Source: an uncultured Clostridia bacterium
GTDB taxonomy: Bacteria; CAYTYR01; UBA6262
Length of the DNA stretch: 64,000 nt
Assembly (NCBI GenBank): GCA_964441745.1
Contig: CAYTYR010000001.1
Coordinates: forward strand, 130,754 to 194,753
Direction: 5' to 3'
The first letter of the stretch is position 1. Each line of letters opens with the position of its first letter. Positions 3,950 to 49,477 of the stretch are shown here, piece after piece. Both the position numbers and the translations under genes were made by a program. Below the pieces are notes generated by a model, which was not told the origin of the DNA, did not search any database, and saw only the letters and a list, made by a program, of their open reading frames with translations.

Positions 3950-4663
3950 CTACACCTCTATGGTTTGACCGGTTTTGATCCTGACAAATTTACGGCCATA
4001 TTGTTTTTTGAAGATACTTTCTGCTGTTTCTCCTGAACAATGCGTAGGGCCGGCTTTTATTATGCCCATCTTTTTAAATTTTGCCGCTGCAATTTCAATT
4101 GCCCGCTCATCTGATTCCATTAAATGGAATCCGCCCAGCACAAGATAAATCGGTTCCGCCGGATATTTCGCCCGCACTTTCTCTACCATTTTTAAGATCC
4201 CGGGATGGGCACACCCGGTAATGATAGTTAAGCCATTTTTAGTTTTACATACCAGCGCTTGTTCCGGCATGTAACGGCCCTTATAGGCGCCAGCTACTTC
4301 CCCGGTAATATCAATGTCTTTAGCCACTGCTGTAAATCTATCAGCCTCGATCAATAGACCATTAAATTTATTAACCTGCGCTTTGAATTCCTTGCTGAAG
4401 TTTGGACAGCCATATACCTTTATTCCCTTCTTTTGCTTTAAGATATCCCCTAACCCTCCCGTATGATCCCAATGATCATGGGAAACAACTACTGCTTCTA
4501 TAGCTGCAATATCAATTTTTAGCTTCCGCATATTGGCCAATAGCCAGCTTCCTTTTTCTCCGGTATCAAATAATATTTTCCCATTGACTAAAATCGAAAG
4601 GCCCCATCCTATATGGAGCTTTTTATCGACCTTGTCTTTATCAAACAGGTTTAATATCTTCAT
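3950..4663 (-). CDS. MBL-fold metallo-hydrolase
   Basis: VVVSHDHWDHTGG matches the HxHxDH zinc-binding signature of the metallo-beta-lactamase superfamily. Confidence 0.75.
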   Translation of the reverse strand: MKILNLFDKDKVDKKLHIGWGLSILVNGKILFDTGEKGSWLLANMRKLKIDIAAIEAVVVSHDHWDHTGGLGDILKQKKGIKVYGCPNFSKEFKAQVNKFNGLLIEADRFTAVAKDIDITGEVAGAYKGRYMPEQALVCKTKNGLTIITGCAHPGILKMVEKVRAKYPAEPIYLVLGGFHLMESDERAIEIAAAKFKKMGIIKAGPTHCSGETAESIFKKQYGRKFVRIKTGQTIEV

Positions 4664-5906: not shown

Positions 5907-6701
5907 TTATTTGATAACCTTACCCCTTCTTTTTAATGTCTCCGCGTCGCTTATTGAATAAATATCCTGAATCTCTTTCTTATCATATACTGAAACTATA
6001 TTAACTTTTTTACAGGCAGCAGCAATCATATTTCTTATTTTCCTGATGCTTTCCTTAGATAACGGATTGACCGCGCAAACCCTTAATGGCGTATTTATCT
6101 GGACTTCATCAGGCTTGATCTGCTTGATCAGGCTGATCATCTTATCAACATCTTTCAGGTTTTTATTGACAAACATTATTTGCAACGCCAGCCACCCTTG
6201 ATACTGCTTGCTAAATTTCTTTATGCCGGATAACAATTTTACAAACCGTACAGCTTTTGCCGGATCATTGATCGCTTGCAAGGAATCAGGCGAGCCGGCA
6301 TCCAGCTTGACTGACACATAATCCGCTAGCAGTAATTCTTTCCTGACCTGACCAAGATGTAATAAGCTGGAGTTAGTTAAAACTGCCACCGGTGTTTTAG
6401 AAAGCGCTTTTACCGCTTTTATCGCCTGCCCCAGATTTTTGGCCAGAGTCGGCTCTCCACTCCCGGCAAAGGTAATATAATCAATAGGCGCCTCTGGCAA
6501 TGTTTTAATCTCCCGGAGAATCTCACTGACTGGGACATAGGTCTGCCTGGTAACCGTATAGCATAGCGTTGGCCCAAGCTGGCAATAAATACAGTTAAAA
6601 TCACAGATCTTTTCTTCCTGCGAAAGCAGATCTATTCCTAACGAACTACCCAGCCGCCAAGAAGCCACCGGGCCATAGATGTATTTATACTTTTTAGTCA
6701 T
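5907..6701 (-). CDS. Radical SAM protein (small, 264 aa)
   Basis: CDFNCIYCQ CX3CX2C motif near the N-terminus. Confidence 0.6.
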   Translation of the reverse strand: MTKKYKYIYGPVASWRLGSSLGIDLLSQEEKICDFNCIYCQLGPTLCYTVTRQTYVPVSEILREIKTLPEAPIDYITFAGSGEPTLAKNLGQAIKAVKALSKTPVAVLTNSSLLHLGQVRKELLLADYVSVKLDAGSPDSLQAINDPAKAVRFVKLLSGIKKFSKQYQGWLALQIMFVNKNLKDVDKMISLIKQIKPDEVQINTPLRVCAVNPLSKESIRKIRNMIAAACKKVNIVSVYDKKEIQDIYSISDAETLKRRGKVIK

Positions 6702-37468: not shown

Positions 37469-39151
37469 TTATTCCCCTTTCTTGATATTATTATTTACTA
37501 TTTCTCCGCCAAATATATCCAGGACCCTGCGGACAACCGGGTCCCCTTCAGCTGGAGTAGTTTCTGTCGCCGGGGGTTGAATATTAATTCCGTTTACTAC
37601 TGTTTCCTCAACTTCTTCGGCTAAAGCAATCTCTTCTTCACCAGCCAGCTCTATCGGCATAGTATTGGCAGTGCCAGTGATAGTGGCAATTTTTATTGGC
37701 TTTTGGAAAACTTGCCGGGCAATCGTTTCAATTATCTTGATGTTTTCTGTGCGTTCTATAGTCTGCTTCTGGAATTTATCTTGCTGGTTAAATTCTAAGG
37801 TTAACATTATGCCGGTCAAATCTTTTACCCTGGCTTGCTCCATAGATGCGGCCAGCCCAGGTTTCTTTTTACGCACTTCTTCGAGCACTGTATGCCACTG
37901 CTGCCGTAAGGGGGTATTCTCTGAAACAGCGTTTGGTTCGGCGACTGCTTCTGATTTAATCAGCGGACTTTTTTTTACTGGTTGTTTAAGGATGGCATTA
38001 TTGCCGCTATTGCCTTTTTCGAGCGCTTCCAAACGACTGATCAAAACATCTATAGCGATATAAGGACGAGCGATGCGTAATAAACCGATTTCTAACACGA
38101 TTTTTGGCTGGTCAGTATATTTCATATCCCGCTCCAGGATTTCCAGCAGCTCAATATACTGCAACAAGGCCTCTTCGCGGATAGAGCTAACCTGGTCCTG
38201 GAGAGTGCTAATTGCTTCAGGGGATAAAGTAATTAATTCCTGCGGCTGGGAGCTGATCTTGGCTATTACTAAATTACGAAAATGCCCGTGCAGGTCTTTG
38301 GTTAATTGATACAGATCAAGGCCTTGTTCCTGGGCTTCCCTGATTAAGGCCAAGATGTCTTGTGCTGCTTGCTTAAAAATGGCGCCACTAAACTTAAGTA
38401 ATAATTCCTGGCTGGTAATCCCTAAAATAGAGCGGGCTGTTGTACCTTCTATTTGTTGCTTGACGCCAACAAAGGATATAACCTGGTCCAGAGTGCTTTG
38501 AGCATCACGCATACTACCTTGCGCCGACTGGCTAATAATATTCAAAGCTTCGTCAGAGATAGTTATTTTTTCTTTAGCGGCAATGGATTTAAGGTGTTTT
38601 TCGATAACGCTAGCAGGGATAAGCTTAAAATTAAAACGCTGACAGCGGGAAAGAATAGTTTCCGGGATTGCCTGGGGTTCAGTAGTAGCGAAGATAAAAA
38701 TAATATGCGCTGGCGGTTCTTCCAAGGTCTTGAGCAGAGCATTAAATCCTTCATTAGTCAGCTGATGTACTTCATCGATGATATAGATCTTATACCTGGC
38801 ATAAGAAGGAGCAAATTTTACATTTTCCCGCAGAGCTTTGATCGCGTCAATACCGCGGTTAGAAGCGCCGTCAATTTCCAATACATCCAAGGAATTGCCC
38901 TCGGTGATTTCCTGGCACAACTGACAGGTATTATCCGGCTCAGATGTAGGCCCTTTTTTACAATTTAAAGCCTTGGCAAAGATCCTGGCAGCAGTGGTCT
39001 TGCCTACACCACGGGGACCGGAAAAAAGATAAGCCTGGCCAATCTTACCGCTGGTAATTGCGTTTTGTAAGGCTTGGGCTACTATTTCCTGTCCAATAAT
39101 GTCGCTAAATACCTGGGGCCTGTATTTTCTCGCCAATACTAAATAACTCAT
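37469..39151 (-). CDS. dnaX: DNA polymerase III subunits gamma/tau
   Basis: GPRGVGKTT Walker A, zinc module CKKGPTSEPDNTCQLCQ, SRC motif (SRCQRF). Confidence 0.9.
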   Translation of the reverse strand: MSYLVLARKYRPQVFSDIIGQEIVAQALQNAITSGKIGQAYLFSGPRGVGKTTAARIFAKALNCKKGPTSEPDNTCQLCQEITEGNSLDVLEIDGASNRGIDAIKALRENVKFAPSYARYKIYIIDEVHQLTNEGFNALLKTLEEPPAHIIFIFATTEPQAIPETILSRCQRFNFKLIPASVIEKHLKSIAAKEKITISDEALNIISQSAQGSMRDAQSTLDQVISFVGVKQQIEGTTARSILGITSQELLLKFSGAIFKQAAQDILALIREAQEQGLDLYQLTKDLHGHFRNLVIAKISSQPQELITLSPEAISTLQDQVSSIREEALLQYIELLEILERDMKYTDQPKIVLEIGLLRIARPYIAIDVLISRLEALEKGNSGNNAILKQPVKKSPLIKSEAVAEPNAVSENTPLRQQWHTVLEEVRKKKPGLAASMEQARVKDLTGIMLTLEFNQQDKFQKQTIERTENIKIIETIARQVFQKPIKIATITGTANTMPIELAGEEEIALAEEVEETVVNGINIQPPATETTPAEGDPVVRRVLDIFGGEIVNNNIKKGE

Positions 39152-39769: not shown

Positions 39770-39868
39770 AGCGGGGTCCTTGCTTTTTTATTCTATCTCT
39801 TTTCACCTTAATCTACTGCTTTATAAAGCTCTCCGAGCTTATTTTTAATCTGTGGAATCGTTTTAAAG

Positions 39869-39941
<73 letters not shown>

Positions 39942-39970
39942 AAGCTGCACTTCGCAAGCTACGTTTGCTT

Positions 39971-39997
39971 TTCATAGGGGAAACTAGAGTTTCCCCT
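39971..39997 (-). promoter_or_regulatory. Conserved tRNA-upstream element (TTCATAGG + hairpin AGGGGAAACTAGAGTTTCCCCT) about 30 nt 5' of tRNA-Ala
   Basis: Seen in sequence. Homologous to the elements at 30381 and 40711. Confidence 0.45.
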
Positions 39998-40127
39998 TCT
40001 GACGGTCGGGTGATTGGCTTGCTCCGTTTTCTCAAGCTTTTACAGCACCCTCCCTGTCAACCCCTTCCGGATTTTGGCATAATCACGGTTTATATTAACA
40101 AGGATTACTTATTTTTGCCAGACATAT

Positions 40128-40520
40128 TTATGGTTGAGGCGGAGCTTCTTGTTGTTCGGCTAACCAGTCTTTAGCCTGTTCTTCAGTATCAAATATCCGG
40201 ATGTCCCGATGAGATAGCGCTATTACTGTTTGAAATAATACTTTGGTTTGCGCAGACACTCCGAATAAAGCGCAGGCCAAGACAAATGGTTTATTAAGGT
40301 CTATATATTCTTTAAAAGTTTTTATCATATCCTTATTAACTCTTATTTGCTTAAGATTAGTTAGGACTCTAATGGAATTAGGCGGTTGTTGGGCAATAAT
40401 ATCCCGGGCTTTTTTTATTTCAACAACAAATTCTTCATAAGTGGCTTCCGAAAAATTTATACTCAGGATTTCTTTTTGCTTGTGCCTGATAAACATTACC
40501 CGGGTGTACTGGAGTGGCAT
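40128..40520 (-). CDS. Hypothetical protein (130 aa)
   Basis: ORF between two tRNA genes. No motif recognised. Confidence 0.35.
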   Translation of the reverse strand: MPLQYTRVMFIRHKQKEILSINFSEATYEEFVVEIKKARDIIAQQPPNSIRVLTNLKQIRVNKDMIKTFKEYIDLNKPFVLACALFGVSAQTKVLFQTVIALSHRDIRIFDTEEQAKDWLAEQQEAPPQP

Positions 40521-40592
40521 TATAACCTCTTTGTTTTGTTTAATCTGTGCCGCGCCCGCCGAAGCTTTAGTGGCGGGTAATCGTTTTAAAAA

Positions 40593-40683
40593 CGGAGAGG
40601 CTGGGATTCGAACCCAGGGTACAAGTTTTCACTCGTACAACCGCTTAGCAGGCGGCTGCCTTCAGCCACTCGGCCACCTCTCC
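40593..40683 (-). tRNA. tRNA-Ser (anticodon GCT), class II with long variable arm
   Basis: Acceptor GGAGAGG/CCTCTCC, D-arm GCCGAGTGGCTGAAGGC, anticodon loop CTGCTAA, long variable stem-loop, T-arm GGGTTCGAATCCC. 91 nt. Confidence 0.85.
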
Positions 40684-40710
40684 AATGCTCACTCGCTTCG
40701 TTCGCTCCGC

Positions 40711-41321: not shown

Positions 41322-42689
41322 TCATGCGGGGTTCTCTGTATTTTTTGCTTCCAGAGCTAATCTTTTCATCTGCTCAGCCATGTACAGCGGCAGGGTCAAA
41401 ACCTTATCATACCAGGAAAGTTTATCCTGTGAAAAACGAATACCCAGCGCTGAATTCTTTTCTGCCATAAACAGTTTTAGCGACCTCAGCGTGCCGGTCT
41501 TGCCGGCCTTGACTTCCACCGGCAGGATCAAAGCATCCACTGCCGTCACATAATCAACTTCGGCGGAACTGCTTTTTTTATCACGCGCCCAGAAAAAAAG
41601 ACCGGGCTCTAGATAACTGTCGGCATAGGCCAGTAATTCCTGTCCTATAAGTTGTTCCGCCACTGCACCGGCATTAATCTGAATAAAATCAGTCGTTAAG
41701 GCAAGCTCTGACTGCAAACCACAAACATTCTGCATGAGGCCCACATCAAGAAAATTTAATTTGAATTTCGTTTCATTGGTTTGCGCTCCCAAAGGAAGCC
41801 CTGACGCGGCAGTAGCATATACCGGACAAATAATCCCCGCTAATTTCAAGAGATTGAGAGCTTGTTTAATATCTCTTGATTTGCTATCAGGATCAATATT
41901 CGCGTATTTAATGCGACTACCGACCAGTTTTGGAGCTTCAGAAAATACCTTTTGCAGGTATTTATGTTCGGATAATTTCGCATATTTACCAAAATCCCCG
42001 CGATATGTTTGCAATAGAGAACTTTGGATGCGCTGACAATTAACATAATTCTTACTCTCCAGGTAATCTTTGACTACCGCCGGCATACCACCCACTATAA
42101 GATATCTTCGCAATAGCTCCAATAGCTTTTGATGTACCGTATCATCTATTGCGCTATTTAGTTTTATTTCCCGCAGATGACACCGCAGCTGCTCGTTCCC
42201 TGAGGCAGTTAGAAATTCGCCAAAAGACAAAGGCCCGAGATATATATATTGAATCCTTCCTACCGGCATTCTAAAATTGGAGCTGTCAAGAGCAAATTCC
42301 ATCAGTGAGCCGGCTCCGATCACCGCTATTCGGTTACACTTCTCCTTGAAATACCGCAGGGCCATTATTGCGTTGGGACATTCCTGTATCTCATCAAGAA
42401 AAAGCAATGTATTCTCTGCTTCTATCGTCACCCCCATGAGCAGTTGTAATTTATTAATGATCTCAAGAGGATCAAACGTATCAAAACACTGCTTGAGCTC
42501 AGGCCTGAATTCAAAGTTGACGACAACCACATTTTTAAAAGCTTTTTTCCCAAAATCTTCAATAAGGTAGCTTTTACCTACCTGCCGCGCGCCTCGCAGT
42601 AGCAAGGGTAGTCGCTCTTGGTATTCTTTCCATTTAAACAATTCTTGTTCCAAATCTCTTTTCATGGCAATCCCTCTTATAATGGTCAA
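41322..42689 (-). CDS. AAA-family ATPase (AAA_14 + DUF4143 architecture)
   Basis: LLRGARQVGKSYL Walker A, LFLDEIQ Walker B, and the C-terminal DUF4143-like region. Confidence 0.7.
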   Translation of the reverse strand: MTIIRGIAMKRDLEQELFKWKEYQERLPLLLRGARQVGKSYLIEDFGKKAFKNVVVVNFEFRPELKQCFDTFDPLEIINKLQLLMGVTIEAENTLLFLDEIQECPNAIMALRYFKEKCNRIAVIGAGSLMEFALDSSNFRMPVGRIQYIYLGPLSFGEFLTASGNEQLRCHLREIKLNSAIDDTVHQKLLELLRRYLIVGGMPAVVKDYLESKNYVNCQRIQSSLLQTYRGDFGKYAKLSEHKYLQKVFSEAPKLVGSRIKYANIDPDSKSRDIKQALNLLKLAGIICPVYATAASGLPLGAQTNETKFKLNFLDVGLMQNVCGLQSELALTTDFIQINAGAVAEQLIGQELLAYADSYLEPGLFFWARDKKSSSAEVDYVTAVDALILPVEVKAGKTGTLRSLKLFMAEKNSALGIRFSQDKLSWYDKVLTLPLYMAEQMKRLALEAKNTENPA

Positions 42690-42778
42690 TATACAAGGGT
42701 ATTATATACTAATAATGGCTAAAATACAAGGCATAAATTGATTTTATGTTAAAGAAAGAACTCTTGGCTAATGCCTAA

Positions 42779-43885
42779 TTATACCTTATCCGTCTGCGAT
42801 TCTAATATTAAATCTTCATGCCGTTTTACAAAATCTTTTACAAGGTTTAAATGTCCTACTTTAAGCGCCAAAATACCTTTTATTCTTGATAGTCTTTCTG
42901 TTGGCTTAAGAGTATTTTCTTTGTCATCAAGTAACGGTTTCAAATCTGCCAATAGATGCGGCATTATTTTCTTAGCTGATTTCTCAAACCGTATTTTAAA
43001 TTCATCTAAATACTCTGGGATGCCTACTGTCAACAACTGCTCTATCCCTTTTAAGCTCTGTGGCATTGTGTTATTTAACAATGAATTTACTTTGATATAC
43101 GACATCTCTTCTATGAAATGTGAATTTTTCTCTATCTTTGTGAGCGCTGTAGATTTAATATCTTCTACCCTTTGCATGGTAAAAGGGCCATAGGTTGTCC
43201 TTGCTAAGATACCCAATGCCTTAAACAAGGGGAAGCAAGACCCATGTATTTTAGATGAGATTAATACTGGGACACACTGTTCCTTATTTGCTTTTTGAAA
43301 TATATCCCAAATCTGCCAAGAGTCAGGGAACATCCATTCATTCGTATTATGAACTCTAATAAGGATATTACCGGTTTGATCCTCTGTTTTTATTATAAAC
43401 TCAAGGTAGTTTTTGTCCTTATTTAGAAGAAAGTCAATAACCGAATAGATTGATTCCTTAAATATTGATTCAAGCTTTTGTTTCAGAAGCATCATTGTTT
43501 TTTGCGAGTGTATTTGCTGATTAATAGATTCAATTAGGTTATCTTTTATTTTAAATAAATCGGCATGATGAATACCAATATTTGAATAGAAATAATGTTC
43601 TTTTAATGTAATCTCACTTGCTGCAAGCAAATCTTGCCCTTTTTTTGAATCCATGAAAAGAGTAACACTCAACGGATCAAAACGAAGATTTCCTGGCCCA
43701 ACCTCACATAGCCGGTATAGAATACCATCATTATTTAATATATATTCTTCGTTTATAAGGGTTACAAGGCGAACTGATAGATAAACACAAATCTCCTTTG
43801 GATATAGCCTATAAACACTAGCGCTTTTAACTTTTTCCATGACTTCTTTTAGGGCTTTTTTTGTTATTATCTCCTTGTACTGCAT
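42779..43885 (-). CDS. Hypothetical protein (368 aa), no recognisable domain
   Basis: AT-rich ORF with GGAGAG SD. Partner of the downstream DUF4062 protein gene. Confidence 0.4.
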   Translation of the reverse strand: MQYKEIITKKALKEVMEKVKSASVYRLYPKEICVYLSVRLVTLINEEYILNNDGILYRLCEVGPGNLRFDPLSVTLFMDSKKGQDLLAASEITLKEHYFYSNIGIHHADLFKIKDNLIESINQQIHSQKTMMLLKQKLESIFKESIYSVIDFLLNKDKNYLEFIIKTEDQTGNILIRVHNTNEWMFPDSWQIWDIFQKANKEQCVPVLISSKIHGSCFPLFKALGILARTTYGPFTMQRVEDIKSTALTKIEKNSHFIEEMSYIKVNSLLNNTMPQSLKGIEQLLTVGIPEYLDEFKIRFEKSAKKIMPHLLADLKPLLDDKENTLKPTERLSRIKGILALKVGHLNLVKDFVKRHEDLILESQTDKV

Positions 43886-43896
43886 AATATCTCTCC

Positions 43897-43920
43897 AAAG
43901 GTTATAATATTATAACCTTT
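43897..43920. promoter_or_regulatory. Perfect 24-bp palindrome AAAGGTTATAATATTATAACCTTT, 12 bp upstream of the 368-aa gene
   Basis: Seen in sequence. Contains TATAAT in both orientations. Confidence 0.45.
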
Positions 43921-44037
43921 AACTAAATTACTAGTCAATTTTGCTTTCATGACATATTTCATGACATTTCATTATTTCTCGTGACATCCTTCTTCCATTA
44001 CATTTACATGACAAAAGGATTGCTTTCATGACATATA

Positions 44038-45513
44038 TCATTTCGCTTTAAATTTCAAGGCTCGTCCTGATCCTTGCGACACAACAAATCCGCTTTCAGA
44101 TAACACCTTCATATCGCGTACAAATGTTTGGTTACTTACTTTAAAGTGTATCCTATATGTTTTATTTGAAAAAGCCATCTTCTCATTAACCATCAATCTT
44201 AATGTCTCTATCTGCCGTTCATTTAAACCTAACTTTCTAAGATCGGTCTGGCGCTCTTCCGGGATACTCGGCACTAAATCCAGAATCTTGTCTCCGGGAC
44301 CAAAAAAGCGGGTTACAAAGAACTCACCTTCTTCTTCAAACACAGGGACAGACAGCCCATGGGCTTTCATTAGCTTTTTCATTTTGCTGATTCCGGTGCC
44401 AAAGCGCTCCATATCCATGGTTTCATGGAAAATATGACAAATCGCTTCATTGCGCGTAGCATGATGCCCTTCAAGCTTCTTGATATTAAGGCCTGGTAAT
44501 AAACCGCCAGGATTACTAACTTCCACTCGATCATCGAAAATTGAAACCATAATTGGAGCTCCACTTTTTGTGTAATCGCGATGTGCTATGGCATTTATGA
44601 TGGATTCACGCACAGCTTCGTATGGATATTCAGGTATATCGACCCGTTTGAACTCGACGATCTTATTGGCTAATCTAGTATTGCGGATAAAAAAAGATTT
44701 CACTTCATCAAGCATCTTATAAATCGGACCTTTGATTTCCTGTGAGTCAATAAACTCCGAACGAGTCGTTCCTTTATAGCGAGCTATACGTATTTCATGA
44801 TGGGAAATATGTTCAGAAGGAGCTTTTCCAAAGAAAAGAAGAGCGGTATTAGTGGGATGCAAATCCCCATCCTCCTTTCTTATAACCTTAAGGGTGTCAA
44901 TAAGAAATTTCCTTATTGTTGTCTTTGGAATGGCAACTTTCAATTTAACCGCACGATTTTGTAGAAAATCTCTTACTGCCTGCTCATCGATAGACTCATA
45001 TCCAAGATCTCGATGTATTGCTTTATCAAAGGGGCCTTTTGCGGATTCTATTTTATCTTCAAGAAAAGAATTAAGGCTGTCAAGAACTTGTGTTTTTAAT
45101 TCATCAATATTTAGAAAACGCTTATAAATAAAGTTCGTTCTGATATTTTTAACAAAGTTCTGTGTCTCCTGGTCCCGCTTGGAATCATCTGAAGAATCAC
45201 CTTTGATAAATGCAATTATCTCCCTGTCTGAGTGTGTTTTTATAAAATGTTGAAATTCACTTTCCGTAGCAGAGAGATTATCCTTCCCTTTATACCCATA
45301 ATTCTTACCAATTATGCACACGTAAATATTGCTATCAGCGACGTGTTTAAGATAGATTACCGCCGGTGACTTGCCTTTAGCAGGCAGATCTTCAAATAGA
45401 AAAACATCAAAAAACCTTTTAAGCGTGGCATTTCTTTCTACTACTTCTTTTATGGCAAAGCGTTCAGCTTTTAGTTCTTTCTGATTTGCGCTTACGAATA
45501 TTTTATATTTCAT
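44038..45513 (-). CDS. DUF4062 - AlbA_2/Schlafen-like divergent-AAA - HATPase_c_4 fusion protein (COG2865-type, putative DNA-binding/defence-associated)
   Basis: N-terminal MKYKIFVSANQKELKAERFAIKEVV matches DUF4062. The central KVAIPKTTIRKFL…GDLHPTNTALLFFG matches the AlbA_2 domain. The C-terminal IINAIAHRDY…GAPIMVSIFDDRVEVSNPGGL matches RecG-C/HATPase_c_4. Confidence 0.6.
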   Translation of the reverse strand: MKYKIFVSANQKELKAERFAIKEVVERNATLKRFFDVFLFEDLPAKGKSPAVIYLKHVADSNIYVCIIGKNYGYKGKDNLSATESEFQHFIKTHSDREIIAFIKGDSSDDSKRDQETQNFVKNIRTNFIYKRFLNIDELKTQVLDSLNSFLEDKIESAKGPFDKAIHRDLGYESIDEQAVRDFLQNRAVKLKVAIPKTTIRKFLIDTLKVIRKEDGDLHPTNTALLFFGKAPSEHISHHEIRIARYKGTTRSEFIDSQEIKGPIYKMLDEVKSFFIRNTRLANKIVEFKRVDIPEYPYEAVRESIINAIAHRDYTKSGAPIMVSIFDDRVEVSNPGGLLPGLNIKKLEGHHATRNEAICHIFHETMDMERFGTGISKMKKLMKAHGLSVPVFEEEGEFFVTRFFGPGDKILDLVPSIPEERQTDLRKLGLNERQIETLRLMVNEKMAFSNKTYRIHFKVSNQTFVRDMKVLSESGFVVSQGSGRALKFKAK

Positions 45514-45559
45514 TCCCCAGCCCTTTGAGATTTATTGTTGTTCTCGGACTCTTAAATAC

Positions 45560-46990
45560 TTTCACGATTCAGTGCCTGATAATATGTTAGGCGCTTCCCC
45601 CCGATTCTTGGTAAAATGATTGTTACTGGCAATCAAACCAAGAAGAGGAGGAAACACCATGAATTATGTTGGTGTAGATCTGCACAAAGAGCAGTCCTGG
45701 TTCGTAGTTTTAGACAGTAAAGGTAAAAGATTGATCAGTAAGAGTATAGCAAATTCTCCGGAAGGGTTAAAGCAGTATTTCTCGAAACTACCGAACCCCT
45801 TTACCCTGGCTGTAGAATCAACATATAACTGGTATTTCTTTGTTGATCTCGCGGAACAATACGCGGAAAAAGTATATCTGGCTAATTCCTATGAGCTGAA
45901 AGCCTTTGCCAAGAGACATAAGAAGACAGATAAGATAGATGCTCATCTGATCGCCGAGGTCCTACGTAAAGGATATTTGCCTACCGTGACTATTCCAGAT
46001 CAAGAAACCAGACGGGTCAAAGAGCTGTTGCGCTACCGGATGAATCTGGTCAGGGAACGCTCTAAGAATATTTATCAGGTAAGTGGTAATTTTACTACCT
46101 ACAAACGATTAAAGGCTCTCCCCCTGGAGCTTTTTCCTCCCAATTACCGGGAGATCATCCAGGGTTACAGCGAGAGAATCGAGTTTCTCACCCGCTGGCT
46201 CTTTCAGATAGAAAAGTATATCAAAGAAAATGTTAAGGATGACGAAGATATCATAAACCTGATCACTATTCCGGGTATCGACTATTTCAGTGCGGCTTTG
46301 ATTAAGACCGAGATCATTGATATCAGCCGGTTTGCTTCTTTTAACCGCTTATGCGCGTATGCCGGGTTAGCTCCCAGAGTCAGTCAAAGCGCCAATAAGG
46401 AAGTACATGGACCTTTAAATATCAATCGCCGGAAGAACCTGCAATGGATCCTAATTGAAGTGGTATATCATTTCATCAAGGCTCTTCCTGAGAAAAGCCA
46501 GCGCTATGAAAGCATAGTAAGCAGAAAAGGCGCTAATACCGCTAAAGTAGCCATGGCCCGAGAAATGCTCAAGATCATTTATCACGTTTTAAAAGAAAAA
46601 AGGCCTTTTTATCAGCATGTTGTCCGGTCTGAGGTGTCTCCTGCGCTCTATGGGGTCTGAGGTGCCGCAAGGCAGCTCTCGAAGGTCTGATTAGCGAGGA
46701 GCCACCACCCGATATTATCATGCAGTCCCGATGCACAGGGAGCTGCCGAGAGGTGACTGAAGTCCGGCATATGGCGGAGCTTCTCAAGGTAACTGATGGG
46801 TGTGGCGCCGACTGGATGATCTTTATAGCAATCATTGAATCTTAAGATTGTGGGGAATCTTTCAAGGGATCTCTATCTCTTCCCTTGACAATCACCTAAA
46901 TAGGTGAACCCGTTACTTCTAGACCCCGTTACTTCCTTACGAAATTTGATTACTAGGGAAGAAGGCTCCCGTTAGCTCTAGCATCAGCTT
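45560..46990 (+). mobile_element. IS110-family insertion sequence (boundaries approximate; this family lacks terminal IRs)
   Basis: Transposase gene plus a 330-bp GC-richer 3' flank, contrasting with AT-rich surroundings. Confidence 0.55.
45659..46660 (+). CDS. IS110-family transposase (DEDD N-domain + C-terminal HhH)
   Basis: MNYVGVDLHKEQSWFVVLD (DEDD motif 1), …TIPGIDYFSAALIKTEIIDISRF (C-terminal domain). GAGGAGG SD upstream. Confidence 0.8.
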   Translation: MNYVGVDLHKEQSWFVVLDSKGKRLISKSIANSPEGLKQYFSKLPNPFTLAVESTYNWYFFVDLAEQYAEKVYLANSYELKAFAKRHKKTDKIDAHLIAEVLRKGYLPTVTIPDQETRRVKELLRYRMNLVRERSKNIYQVSGNFTTYKRLKALPLELFPPNYREIIQGYSERIEFLTRWLFQIEKYIKENVKDDEDIINLITIPGIDYFSAALIKTEIIDISRFASFNRLCAYAGLAPRVSQSANKEVHGPLNINRRKNLQWILIEVVYHFIKALPEKSQRYESIVSRKGANTAKVAMAREMLKIIYHVLKEKRPFYQHVVRSEVSPALYGV

Positions 46991-46991
46991 C

Positions 46992-47135
46992 TTATAGTGG
47001 TATTAGTACCTCTTCACACCAAGAAATAACTTCTTCTGCATTATCTACTGAAGTAATATGCCAAAATATTCGTTGTAAATCTTTCCCTTTGAGAATATCA
47101 ATCGGGATGTCAGAATATTTTCCAAATTGCTTTAT
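46992..47135 (-). pseudogene. 3' fragment of a gene interrupted by IS21 insertion (…EFTIKQFGKYSDIPIDILKGKDLQRIFWHITSVDNAEEVISWCEEVLIPL)
   Basis: The reading frame runs out of the IS21 left terminal repeat. The N-terminal portion lies beyond the IS at 49553-50205. Confidence 0.4.
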
Positions 47136-47303
47136 TGTAAATTCCGCCGCATGACGACCGCAGATTCCGCTGCATGGCGACCGGGTTTTCCGCTGATGAC
47201 GACCAGCCGTTGGCCAGGATAAAACCAAAGCCGAATAAATTCAAGCATAATCTTCAAAAAACTGCCATAATGTGCCTACTTTATTCATTGGAGGCGCAAA
47301 AAG

Positions 47304-48740
47304 ATGGCGCAAAAGAGGTTATGCGTGAGACAAATCAAAGAAGTGTTAAGATTGAAGTATGAGCTGGGTAAAACCCACCAGGAAATCAAAAATATATGCG
47401 GTATAGGCAAAACCACGGTACAGGAATATCTTTCCCGGGCGCAAGCGGACGGGCTCAGCTGGCCCTTACCGCCTGATCTGAATGATGTCCAGTTGGAACA
47501 GCGATTATTCAAGAAAAAGAGCAATCCAGTAATAGGAAAGGCGCCGATTCCCTACCAGTATATAGCCGAAGAATTGCGCCGGCCCAATGTAACCTTGTGG
47601 TTGTTATGGGAAGAATACAAAAAAGAAAATCCGGAGAACGGCTATCAGTATAGTTTTTTCAATGAACAGGTTGATAAATACCTTGGCCGCGTAAACTACA
47701 GTATGCGACAGCAGCATCAGGCTGGTGAAAAAGTATTTGTTGATTTCGGCAATATTGAAGAACCGGGAATACTCGATCACTCCACCGGAGAGCTTTTAAA
47801 GATTCAGTTCTTCGTGGCAGTCTGGGGCGCTTCGCAATACGCCTATGCCGAAGCCTCACTGAGTCAGGATACCGCGGCCTGGATCAAGCTTAACATCAAC
47901 GCCTTGAGATTTTTCGGTTGCGCGCCGCAAGCGCTGGTGCCGGACAATCTTAAAGCCGCCGTAACTCAAACCTGCAAATATGAACCGATAATTAATAACA
48001 CTTTCATCGAGTTTGCCAATCACTATGATCTGGCGATAATGCCGGCCAGGCCAGCCAAACCAAAAGACAAGGCTTTAGCGGAAAACGGCGTTAAACTGGT
48101 CAAGCGCTGGATACTGGCCCGCCTGAGAAATAGAATTTTCGCTAATTTGGAACAATTAAACGCCGCCATCCGTGAACTACTGGAATATTACAATACACGG
48201 ATTATGAAAAAATACGGCAAATCGCGTAAAGAACTGTTTGCTTCTCTGGATAAACCAGTGGCGGCTTCTCTACCGGAAACAGATTATGAATATGCCCAGT
48301 GGAAAAAAGCCAGGGTGAATATTAATTATCATGTGAATTTTGAGAAACACGATTATTCAGTTCCTTACACGTTAATCCACAAAGAAGTGGAGATCAAAGC
48401 CACTACCGGAATAATCGAGGTGTATTTCCAGGGCGAAAGAGTCTGCGCTCATGCCAGAAGTGGCCGGGAAAACGGCTATTCCACGATCAAAGAGCACTTG
48501 CCGCCATCACACCAGAAATACCTGGAGTGGACCCCGCACCGATTAGTTTCCTGGGCCGAAAAATACGGCCCGGCAGTCAAAGCTCTCGTGGAAGCTATTA
48601 TGGCTTCGACCAGATTCCCGGAACAAGCGTATAAACGCTGCCTGGGTATTATCCGGCTGGGCAACCGCTATTCACCCCAACGTCTCAATACCGCTTGCCA
48701 ACGCGCTCTTAAATACCAGCAAACGGAGGAAAAACCATGA
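47304..48740 (+). CDS. istA: IS21-family transposase IstA
   Basis: N-terminal HTH (RQIKEVLRLKYELGKTHQEI), DDE core (…VDFG…, …D…, …E…), 478 aa. Overlaps istB by 4 bp. Confidence 0.85.
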   Translation: MAQKRLCVRQIKEVLRLKYELGKTHQEIKNICGIGKTTVQEYLSRAQADGLSWPLPPDLNDVQLEQRLFKKKSNPVIGKAPIPYQYIAEELRRPNVTLWLLWEEYKKENPENGYQYSFFNEQVDKYLGRVNYSMRQQHQAGEKVFVDFGNIEEPGILDHSTGELLKIQFFVAVWGASQYAYAEASLSQDTAAWIKLNINALRFFGCAPQALVPDNLKAAVTQTCKYEPIINNTFIEFANHYDLAIMPARPAKPKDKALAENGVKLVKRWILARLRNRIFANLEQLNAAIRELLEYYNTRIMKKYGKSRKELFASLDKPVAASLPETDYEYAQWKKARVNINYHVNFEKHDYSVPYTLIHKEVEIKATTGIIEVYFQGERVCAHARSGRENGYSTIKEHLPPSHQKYLEWTPHRLVSWAEKYGPAVKALVEAIMASTRFPEQAYKRCLGIIRLGNRYSPQRLNTACQRALKYQQTEEKP

Positions 48741-49477
48741 ACCTAAATCAAACTATTACCAGGCTCAATGAAATGAAATTATTCGGTCTGGCCAGAGCTT
48801 ATCAGGACAGAAGAACCAAACCAGACCATCAAGACCTCTCCTTTGACGAATTCTTAGGCCTGCTTGTTGACGATGAATACTTATACCGAAAAAATAACCG
48901 CCTCAAAAGACTTTTACAACTGGCCAGATTCAAAATCAACAATACCTCTCTGGAAGAAATAGACTACCGCCAGCCAAGAGGTCTGCAGAAAACTCAGATC
49001 GTCAATCTCCAGAATACTTCTTGGCTGACTAATCATCAGAATATCTTAATTGCCGGTCCAACAGGAGTCGGCAAAACCTATCTGGCCTGCGCTTTCGGTA
49101 ACTGGGCTTGCAGAAACGGCTTTACCACTGCCTATTTCCGCTGGCCGCGTCTTTTCGGCGACATCCTCGTGGCCAAAGGCGAAGGCAATTACCTTAAACA
49201 TCTTAAAAAACTGGCTAAAATTCAACTGCTGATTATTGATGATTTCGGCCTCAATGCTCTTGCCGATAGCGATAGAAAGGATTTCCTGGAAATCATTGAA
49301 GACAGATATATGGCTGGCTCGACCATTATTACCAGTCAATTGCCAGTCAAAGACTGGCACGAGTTTATCGGCGAGCCTACTATTGCTGATGCCATTATGG
49401 ACAGAATCCTTCATCTGTCCTGCAAATTTGATTTAAAAGGAGGTTCCATGCGTAAACCGCAAAAAAATATTGATTAA
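48737..49477 (+). CDS. istB: IS21-family helper ATPase IstB
   Basis: IAGPTGVGKTYLACA Walker A, LLIIDDFG Walker B. Confidence 0.85.
   Translation: MNLNQTITRLNEMKLFGLARAYQDRRTKPDHQDLSFDEFLGLLVDDEYLYRKNNRLKRLLQLARFKINNTSLEEIDYRQPRGLQKTQIVNLQNTSWLTNHQNILIAGPTGVGKTYLACAFGNWACRNGFTTAYFRWPRLFGDILVAKGEGNYLKHLKKLAKIQLLIIDDFGLNALADSDRKDFLEIIEDRYMAGSTIITSQLPVKDWHEFIGEPTIADAIMDRILHLSCKFDLKGGSMRKPQKNID

Follow-up and report, generated by a model that had tools for sequence, protein, structure and literature searches.

A predicted DUF4062 NADase on a GHKL-winged-helix chassis, with a direct-repeat array past its own stop codon, in an uncultured Clostridia bacterium

In a 64-kb stretch of DNA from an uncultured Clostridia bacterium (64,000 nt, hereafter the window), a candidate defence gene that we call gene A is followed, a few bases past its stop codon, by an array of short direct repeats, which appears to be read by the winged helix at the end of the protein encoded by gene A itself. 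Gene A (44038-45513, minus strand) is an open reading frame (ORF) of 491 amino acids (aa) that fuses an NIR/DUF4062 domain, by sequence a predicted nicotinamide adenine dinucleotide hydrolase (NADase), to a GHKL ATPase and a winged helix; gene B (42779-43885, minus strand) encodes 368 aa of an uncharacterised family with a core resembling the restriction-endonuclease fold. Both ORFs and the 152-bp spacer between them are where an earlier reading of the bare sequence (the original prediction) had placed them. We lean towards a reading in which gene A is a self-contained NADase effector of the abortive-infection type, built on a GHKL-winged-helix chassis and equipped with a private array, gene B being a separate accessory module. 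Directly established are the domain content, array conservation, the covariation between array and winged helix, the synteny from gene B to gene A, and the covariation within the palindromes of gene B.

The repeat array and its reader

The array (43945-44034, minus strand) consists of six 11-nt direct repeats resembling ATGTCAYGAAA, arranged as two triplets with a period of about 47 bp. Along the coding strand, units R1 (44024-44034), R2 (44004-44014), R3 (43993-44003), R4 (43977-43987), R5 (43957-43967), and R6 (43945-43955) read ATGTCATGAAA, TTGTCATGTAA, ATGTAATGGAA, ATGTCACGAGA, ATGTCATGAAA, and ATGTCATGAAA, with start-to-start spacings of 20, 11, 16, 20, and 12 nt. The original prediction had counted at least four units between 43947 and 44035; the repeats are real and clustered, and there are six of them. 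With at most one mismatch, TGTCAYGRAA is matched six times on one strand within 43945-44033 and 17 times in the whole window, where 13 matches are expected by chance; as only about 0.02 matches are expected per 90 bp (P roughly 1e-13 for the cluster, a Poisson estimate), the clustering cannot be attributed to chance.

We examined 41 metagenome loci with gene A and scored array geometry in 34 loci. A direct-repeat array lies 3-10 nt past the gene A stop codon in nearly every metagenome locus examined, and most of the scored loci share the spacing 20 / 11-12 / 14-17 / 20 / 11-12 nt, which makes two triplets, each about 47 bp long; a few loci have one triplet only. The sequence of the unit varies from locus to locus, with at least 11 types, including ATGTCAYGAAA, ATGTCCGAAAT, ATGTCGGATAA, ATGGCGCATAA, ATGGCTCGATT, and TTGGCGGAATT. 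Units do not cluster elsewhere in these loci, upstream of gene A included, and autoregulation through units at gene A's own promoter was dropped for want of a unit cluster there. About 30 homologous loci share this array geometry, whatever gene is found downstream, and the array therefore belongs to gene A and not to gene B. A chance origin for the repeats and for the palindrome described below, in intergenic DNA that is indeed AT-rich and with a unit containing the self-complementary TCATGA, has a negligible probability in our eyes: six one-strand matches in 90 bp against about 0.02 expected, a geometry kept in about 30 independent loci with differing unit sequences, and palindrome arms covarying to a degree reached by none of 500 shuffles together refute it.

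The model to which the original prediction leads is one of an obligate two-gene defence system, in which the winged helix of gene A, sitting on the intergenic array, would switch gene B on or off. The array does lie between the two genes, its units R5 and R6 closely precede the -35 hexamer of the best promoter-like site, and no terminator-like site separates genes A and B on the minus strand. Seen from gene B, the pairing is also well conserved, since the gene immediately upstream, in the same orientation, encodes DUF4062-HATPase_c_4 in 9 of the 10 informative loci (the window, L001/2, L003, L004/5, L007, L008, L057/58, L061, and, with a remote homolog of gene B, L050); in the exception, L049 (3-735), a remote homolog of gene B stands beside a divergent XRE-type helix-turn-helix (HTH) gene, not beside gene A. 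The synteny does not hold from the side of gene A, however: of the metagenome loci with gene A, 33 keep some sequence downstream of it, and gene B is present in a single one of these and absent from 32, several of which retain less than 300 nt, too little to exclude it. Gene A is mostly found without gene B, often within type I restriction-modification (R-M) operons, and the genes that follow it are heterogeneous (RadC, methyltransferases, HsdS, CobQ, ABC ATPase), some loci having no same-strand ORF of at least 60 aa that starts within about 700 nt of the gene A stop codon. The same array is present in about 30 loci with such unrelated genes, or no such ORF, downstream, and with no relative of gene B there, which removes the claim that it is a regulatory site specific to the 368-aa gene. 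The loci with gene B, for their part, span at least five array types, so that gene B goes with more than one specificity of gene A, and gene B has conserved palindromes of its own, apparently its real control sites. With gene B behind gene A in only 1 of 33 loci, the two do not form an obligate system; we thus find this model unlikely, and a role of the array as operator of gene B would be, at most, a local by-product.

The last 50 residues or so are the only hypervariable part of gene A and, across the 34 loci, helix 2, the recognition helix, and the wing sort perfectly by repeat type. Gene A of the window and that of L001 are 94.8% identical over residues 1-440 and only 27.7% over residues 445-491, and their repeat units differ (TGTCAYGAAA vs. 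TGTCCGAAAT); compared with L004, the window has a body 66% and a tail 72% identical, and the repeat unit is identical in type. Over all pairs, tail identity is 69.6% when the repeat type is the same and 34.7% when the types differ, for a body identity of about 71-72% in both groups, so that the correlation between tail and array is not phylogenetic inertia. Judging from these alignments, tail and array are exchanged together between relatives as one contiguous cassette, and the covariation of recognition helix and wing with repeat type strongly supports the idea, already put forward in the original prediction, that the winged helix would read the array.

Some loci carry more than one set of repeats. 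Relics of a second array with another specificity were seen just past the cognate array in L025 (~4150-4200), L008 (~4440-4540), L028 (~2150-2200), and L043 (~860-900), sometimes in inverse orientation, for example as ATGTCCGA units after a ATGGCTCGATT array; this suggests that winged-helix-plus-array cassettes were replaced at the same site. A further repeat family (aatcgttaa, aatcgtcag, with gtgattt) is found past the gene A array in L010/L037 (~6590-6690), L011 (~1730-1830), and L047 (~640-720).

Winged helices of the OmpR/PhoB type bind direct repeats, such as the tandem 11-bp pho boxes, head-to-tail and about one helical turn apart; in pho box, iteron, and parC arrays, several sites form an ordered nucleoprotein array, and protein and site co-diversify. 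The one- and two-turn spacings after gene A, constant over variable spacers, likewise argue for binding to double-stranded DNA. The array might instead act as RNA, the repeats of a gene A 3' untranslated region being bound or processed like an RNA antitoxin, loosely as in type III toxin-antitoxin systems. Lying 3-10 nt past the stop codon with no terminator in between, it is probably co-transcribed with gene A, and covariation alone cannot separate a DNA from an RNA reading. We nevertheless hold the RNA version to be quite improbable, as the reader is modelled as a winged helix of the canonical three-helix form, the 11-12- and 20-nt spacings amount to one and two turns of B-DNA and stay constant while the spacer sequences vary, Rfam returns no family match in 42600-45700, gene A has no RNase domain, and the 11-nt units are not the tandem 34-36-nt pseudoknot-forming repeats of such systems.

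Likewise, direct repeats with an 11-bp period, a fast-diverging specificity, and a cognate binding protein are typical of iterons and of parC/parS, and one may ask whether a mobile element uses the array as an iteron- or centromere-like site and gene A as its replication, partition, or exclusion protein, in which case gene A would not be an immune effector. Homologs of gene A come from genome bins of Omnitrophota, Elusimicrobiota, Actinobacteria, and Thermoplasmata with 64-95% identity, a sign of horizontal transfer, and the second-array relics beside some first arrays point the same way. The loci are, however, chromosomal, in type I R-M operons or beside housekeeping genes, with no conserved replication, partition, or integrase partner and, neither replication nor partition is known to involve a protein that combines a GHKL switch with a NADase whose catalytic glutamate is intact. 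We give this explanation even less credit than the RNA one.

Arrays are also found behind canonical relatives of gene A, which have a Schlafen domain in front of the GHKL ATPase and the HTH: among eight such genes sampled from plasmids and phages, three have a 3' array with a period of about 11 bp. The array is thus not essential to the scaffold as such, and its being a universal feature of the canonical family was ruled out. The repeats, each following a canonical HATPase_c_4-winged-helix gene, are ATTGGGCAA in five copies on Rhodothermus marinus pRMAR01 (L052, ~2783-2815), ATTGGCTCA in five copies on a Hymenobacter canadensis plasmid (L056, ~2001-2140), and AGGATACAGTA in about 20 tandem copies on a Streptococcus dysgalactiae plasmid (L054, ~2200-2400).

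Domain architecture of gene A

Two of the domains announced by the original prediction are matched in Pfam, namely DUF4062 (PF13271) at residues 4-88 (62.9 bits for a cut-off of 24.7) and HATPase_c_4 (PF13749) at residues 318-401 (79.6 bits, E = 1.7e-22). The DUF4062 (or NIR) domain is a TIR-like NADase that serves as effector in defence and requires a catalytic glutamate for this (E97 in KpSwz, E108 in PsAvs2, E98 in Vulcan), and NIR systems include Swarozyc (KpSwz), Evangelion (Eva01-04), Avs2, Vulcan, and Vesta (bioRxiv 10.64898/2026.05.01.722283, 2026.06.25.731849, 2026.09.04.749371); the anti-phage role that the original prediction attached to DUF4062 fits these three 2026 preprints. In gene A, the NIR/DUF4062 TIR-like domain covers approximately residues 1-150 (45064-45513, minus strand), the presumed catalytic residue being Glu86 of the motif T-E-S-E-F. 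A profile built from homologs of gene A matches the DUF4062 structure of KpSwz (10wc, E = 8e-7) over gene A residues 2-142, Glu86 being aligned to an alanine in the stretch ...FTEKAFDY..., presumably the E97A mutant of the preprint. The AlphaFold2 (AF2) model of the N-terminal domain shows alternating beta-alpha elements with a predicted local distance difference test score (pLDDT) of 80-90, and Foldseek brings it close to TIR-STING (9lmq), SPARTA TIR-APAZ (8isy_B), and flavodoxins, all at E of about 1e-3.

The GHKL ATPase (HATPase_c_4; 44311-44628, minus strand) has the N-box residues E303/N307 and glycine-rich motifs, and matches DIP2311 (PDB 3lmm) both in sequence and, by Foldseek, in fold. 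The C-terminal winged helix (44041-44241, minus strand; residues 425-491) comprises a recognition helix at 461-473 and a wing at 477-490; AF2 models its residues ~430-491 as three helices and a beta-hairpin (pLDDT 85-94), and HTH_DeoR is called in some homologs. In an alignment of 28 gene A homologs, E84 and E86 are invariant, as are E303, N307, the G336-P340 stretch, and G372-T373-G374. The family is large, with more than 1400 homologs, the best 120 of which are 64-88% identical over about 490 aa, and gene A is 100% identical to an NCBI protein carried on a 260-kb contig.

The original prediction had placed a Schlafen-like AlbA_2 domain between these parts. Pfam does not detect AlbA_2/Schlafen (PF04326) in gene A, even with E up to 0.1, and gene A aligns to Schlafen relatives only beyond that domain. 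Indeed, in canonical relatives (~485-505 aa), SLFN_AlbA_2 occupies residues 12-138 and precedes HATPase_c_4 and a winged helix; gene A residues 218-488 align to a canonical 484-aa member with 32% identity, nothing aligning before residue 218, and residues 157-488 align to positions 151-478 of the 485-position phrog_12156 (a "RecG-like" family). In PADLOC, residues 116-388 match an Argonaute-associated SIR2 protein, outside its SIR2 part, and the N-terminal portion of a pAgo model. The combination of Schlafen, PF13749 GHKL ATPase, and HTH, recently named Schlatpase-HTH, is found in about 60,000 proteins, more than 90% of which have the C-terminal HTH; SLFN-pAgo is driven to tetramerise when its PF13749 GHKL domain binds ATP, and RzAgo E314/N318, equivalent to gene A E303/N307, bind Mg-ATP. 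With DUF4062 in the place that SLFN_AlbA_2 takes in the canonical relatives, gene A is, as far as sequence comparison goes, a Schlatpase-HTH layout whose Schlafen nuclease is replaced by a DUF4062 NADase, and its predicted output would therefore be NAD+ depletion and not tRNA cleavage.

A split version of this architecture was observed on the Legionella pneumophila Paris plasmid pLPP (NC_006365.1; L051, 39-1539), where DUF4062 (173 aa) and HATPase_c_4-Fic-like_C (323 aa) are encoded by two adjacent genes; this pair has neither a winged-helix match nor an array.

Gene B, its palindromes, and the neighbourhood of the locus

Gene B had been described as an orphan without any detectable motif. The latter part of that description stands, as the protein has no match in Pfam, PADLOC, NCBIfam, PHROG, or the PDB sequences, and ten of its remote relatives, tested against Pfam, have no domain either; an orphan it is not, with 15 homolog clusters (38-90% identity) and, by profile search, a superfamily of about 158 remote representatives. 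The AF2 model (pLDDT 78, predicted template modelling score (pTM) 0.78) has a central alpha-beta-beta-beta-alpha-beta core, for which Foldseek finds weak matches in the PDB, PD-(D/E)xK nucleases being prominent among them (EndoMS as the best, then MspJI, FokI, Can2, Cap4, and Hjc), and only weak matches among viral structures. The structural check advocated in the original prediction points, with weak scores, to a possible restriction-endonuclease-like core that lacks the canonical catalytic motif: beta2 has a nearly invariant E162, beta3 has R177 and N180 where (D/E)xK would be looked for, and none of these is conserved superfamily-wide, the positions that are being R39, E61, G63, R68, W184, and K222. 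A papain-like Cys/His site at the HGSC motif was considered and ruled out, H214 and C217 not being conserved in the wider superfamily.

Along the coding strand, the gene A stop codon is followed by the six units, a sigma-70-like promoter-like site (43909-43938, minus strand; TTGACT, an 18-nt spacer, TATAAT), a palindrome that contains the TATAAT, the sequence GGAGAG, and the ATG of gene B. The promoter-like site is the best of the region, with 11 of 12 consensus positions, and is a match to the consensus only; R6 ends 6 nt upstream of its -35 hexamer. The palindrome, which the original prediction had rightly described as perfect and 24 bp long, is AAAGG-TTATAATATTATAA-CCTTT, that is, AAAGGTTATAATATTATAACCTTT (43897-43920), about 30 nt upstream of the ATG. 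No second TTATAATATTATAA palindrome exists in the window, the exact 14-bp core being unique there, and across the loci the exact core is found only in those that carry gene B. It occurs two to three times upstream of gene B in the seven close-homolog loci scanned (L001, L003, L004, L007, L008, L057, and L061), the proximal copy being 26-53 nt before the start codon; L050 has variants of it with one mismatch, and the palindromes of L049 have a variant core, TTATTATATAATAA, so that, given the XRE-type gene of L049, different readers may serve the same style of site.

We compared the arms of 20 palindromes at the four positions that flank the core: 78 of the 80 cases are paired, with all four Watson-Crick pair types represented, and the covariation score of the arms is 0.50 vs. 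0.13 in shuffles, none of the 500 shuffles reaching the observed value. Two palindromes within one locus have different arms; together with the covariation, this indicates that the dyad symmetry itself seems to be selected, which suggests a cruciform or a hairpin, or else an unusual symmetric reader. The TTATAATATTATAA site around the putative -10 hexamer of gene B is probably an operator or a cruciform-prone switch.

A recurrent order around the pair is hsdM, A, B, sometimes TIR_2, then hsdS, and the A-B pair was repeatedly observed between hsdM and hsdS of type I R-M systems, in L003 (2460-9576), L057 (646-5095), L061 (275-5890), and L059 (36-3057); in L057 and L061, the end of hsdM and gene A share 11 nt, and TIR_2 follows gene B in L003 and L059. 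Neighbours across the loci include type I R-M genes, TIR_2, an OLD-like ATPase, SIR2 with HerA, Fic, and PDC-S01.

In the window, the gene directly downstream of gene B is a PDC-S01 candidate (41322-42689, minus strand; 455 aa, AAA_14-DUF4143 in Pfam) that matches PADLOC PDLC04788 nearly end to end (E = 3.6e-148), a neighbour that marks the region as a defence island. This small island adjoins tRNA-Ala(CGC) and tRNA-Ser(GCU), near dnaX (39868-40684, 37469-39151). L001 (11862-16843) has the A-B pair in the same dnaX/ybaB/recR neighbourhood, with a gene A 88% identical to that of the window and another cargo, a GNAT gene being in place of PDC-S01 and no insertion sequence being present.

Upstream of gene A, the window has two insertion sequences back to back (45580-49477), an IS110-family element and then an IS21-like ORF pair (47304-48740 and 48737-49477). 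The left part of the IS110 element (45580-46660, plus strand) includes a transposase ORF (45620-46660) with the Pfam domains DEDD_Tnp_IS110 and Transposase_20. The homology to L001 upstream of gene A ends at about 45579, that is, 66 nt before the gene A ATG, and IS110 therefore replaced the native promoter region of gene A; the original prediction, for which the element was immediately upstream and could affect the promoter, is in agreement with this break. An outward promoter-like site (TTGCCA, 17-nt spacer, AAGAAT; 45632..45604) was seen inside the IS110 end.

Proposed mode of action and comparison with known systems

In the reading that we favour, the N-terminal NIR/DUF4062 NADase, with Glu86 intact, would be the effector part, the GHKL ATPase would be of the kind that drives ATP-dependent oligomerisation in Schlatpase proteins, and the winged helix would read the private six-repeat array, two triplets with one- and two-helical-turn spacing, so that each gene A variant would have its own DNA "address". 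In an uninfected cell, the gene A protein would sit on its array as an ordered ATP-dependent oligomer with a silent NADase, and might also gate transcription from gene A into the downstream genes; an infection cue would then alter the bound state, and the NADase would deplete NAD+ and abort the infection. Gene B, docked behind a gene A array nearly always and with a putative promoter of its own, could be a second effector, a sensor, or a DNA-binding partner. We have moderate confidence that binding to the array would control the assembly state of the effector and, possibly, read-through into the downstream cargo.

Several points weigh against this reading. DNA binding, NADase activity, and defence are deduced from homology, and any regulation is likewise a deduction. 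One chromosomal array holds only a few protein molecules, so that pure sequestration would need a very low expression, and the IS110 insertion may have changed the expression of gene A here. The AF2 model of gene A is poor between the end domains (pTM 0.39, pLDDT below 50 for residues 250-295 and 349-372), and five of the eight canonical Schlafen-GHKL-HTH genes sampled have no 3' array. As for gene B, its fold is assigned on weak Foldseek scores (best E = 0.05), and the D...(D/E)xK motif is not conserved in its family.

DUF4062/NIR NADases and Schlafen-GHKL proteins have been recognised as immune modules only in 2025-2026, and the locus offers a testable answer for one large clade, the candidate HTH target being six phased sites a few bases past the gene, with the natural specificity swap between the window and L001 usable as a ready-made control. 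It is possible, if rather doubtful, that immune proteins with the GHKL-winged-helix layout form a large class, each member having a private docking array of DNA past its own stop codon. This array would act in cis as a DNA co-factor (a template or a tether) and set whether a suicide effector, be it a NADase or a tRNase, is in its oligomeric on or off state. If this were true, the class would be the NIR-GHKL-winged-helix clade, with its more than 1400 homologs, and possibly a sizeable part of the approximately 60,000 Schlafen-GHKL-HTH proteins; reader and site would make up an exchangeable specificity cassette that keeps paralogous systems orthogonal, the unexplained HTH of the GHKL-winged-helix superfamily would gain a function, and a "DNA antitoxin or address" beside a toxin would be a new regulatory principle for abortive infection. 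The locus also draws attention to the exchange of effectors (Schlafen tRNase, NIR NADase, SIR2) on an ATPase-HTH chassis that is conserved, to the recurrent embedding in type I R-M operons, and to gene B as a new protein superfamily with unusual dyad-symmetric putative control sites.

Known systems resemble parts of this locus. Type III toxin-antitoxin (ToxIN-like) systems have tandem repeats of about 36 nt upstream of an endoribonuclease toxin, from which an RNA antitoxin is processed, whereas the units of gene A are 11 nt long, irregularly spaced, and downstream. The PD-(D/E)xK nucleases (EndoMS/NucS, MspJI, the FokI cleavage domain, Can2/Cap4, and Hjc) are matched by Foldseek, weakly, to the central core of gene B; they differ from it by the conserved D...(D/E)xK that gene B lacks, and gene B has no sequence-family match in Pfam, PDB, PADLOC, or PHROGs. 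With OmpR/PhoB regulators and with iteron/parC arrays, the gene A array has in common several direct-repeat sites about one helical turn apart and a reader that co-diversifies with its site; gene A, however, has neither the receiver domain of the former nor the replication or partition context of the latter, its sites are 3' of the reader's own gene and not at a target promoter, and its reader is fused to a NADase and a GHKL ATPase.

The Schlatpase-HTH proteins (also COG2865, pSlfn HisKinase-HTH, 3lmm DIP2311, and the N-terminal module of SLFN-pAgo) share the Mg-ATP residues and the terminal winged helix with gene A; like it, they are often embedded in type I R-M operons, and some members have 3' arrays with an 11-bp period. 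Their defining Schlafen nuclease (E(x)4(D/E)xK motif, SAFAN box) is not found in gene A, however, and in the literature that we searched their HTH is noted and no target is assigned to it. The NIR defence proteins, for their part, share with gene A the N-terminal DUF4062 and its conserved catalytic glutamate, a single polypeptide joining the effector to a variable auxiliary or sensor region, and the context of a defence island. They differ by this auxiliary region, which in gene A is a GHKL ATPase and a predicted sequence-specific winged helix; none of the three NIR preprints mentions HATPase_c_4, GHKL, Schlafen, or RecG-like partners. As regards Swarozyc and Evangelion (the latter compared by description), only gene A residues 2-142 match KpSwz, and the remainder matches GHKL-HTH proteins. 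Vesta is an operon of a small NIR and an alkaline phosphatase, unlike the 491-aa multidomain gene A and a gene B without Pfam match, the latter being neither Vesta's alkaline phosphatase nor any other described NIR component. No adjacent DNA repeat array is reported for Swarozyc, Evangelion, Avs2, Vulcan, or Vesta, and we found no description of such 3' arrays, or of an NIR-GHKL-winged-helix architecture, in the literature searched, the coverage of which is incomplete. Gene A would thus be a variant of the NIR defence proteins with an apparently undescribed reader-plus-site cassette beside the gene.

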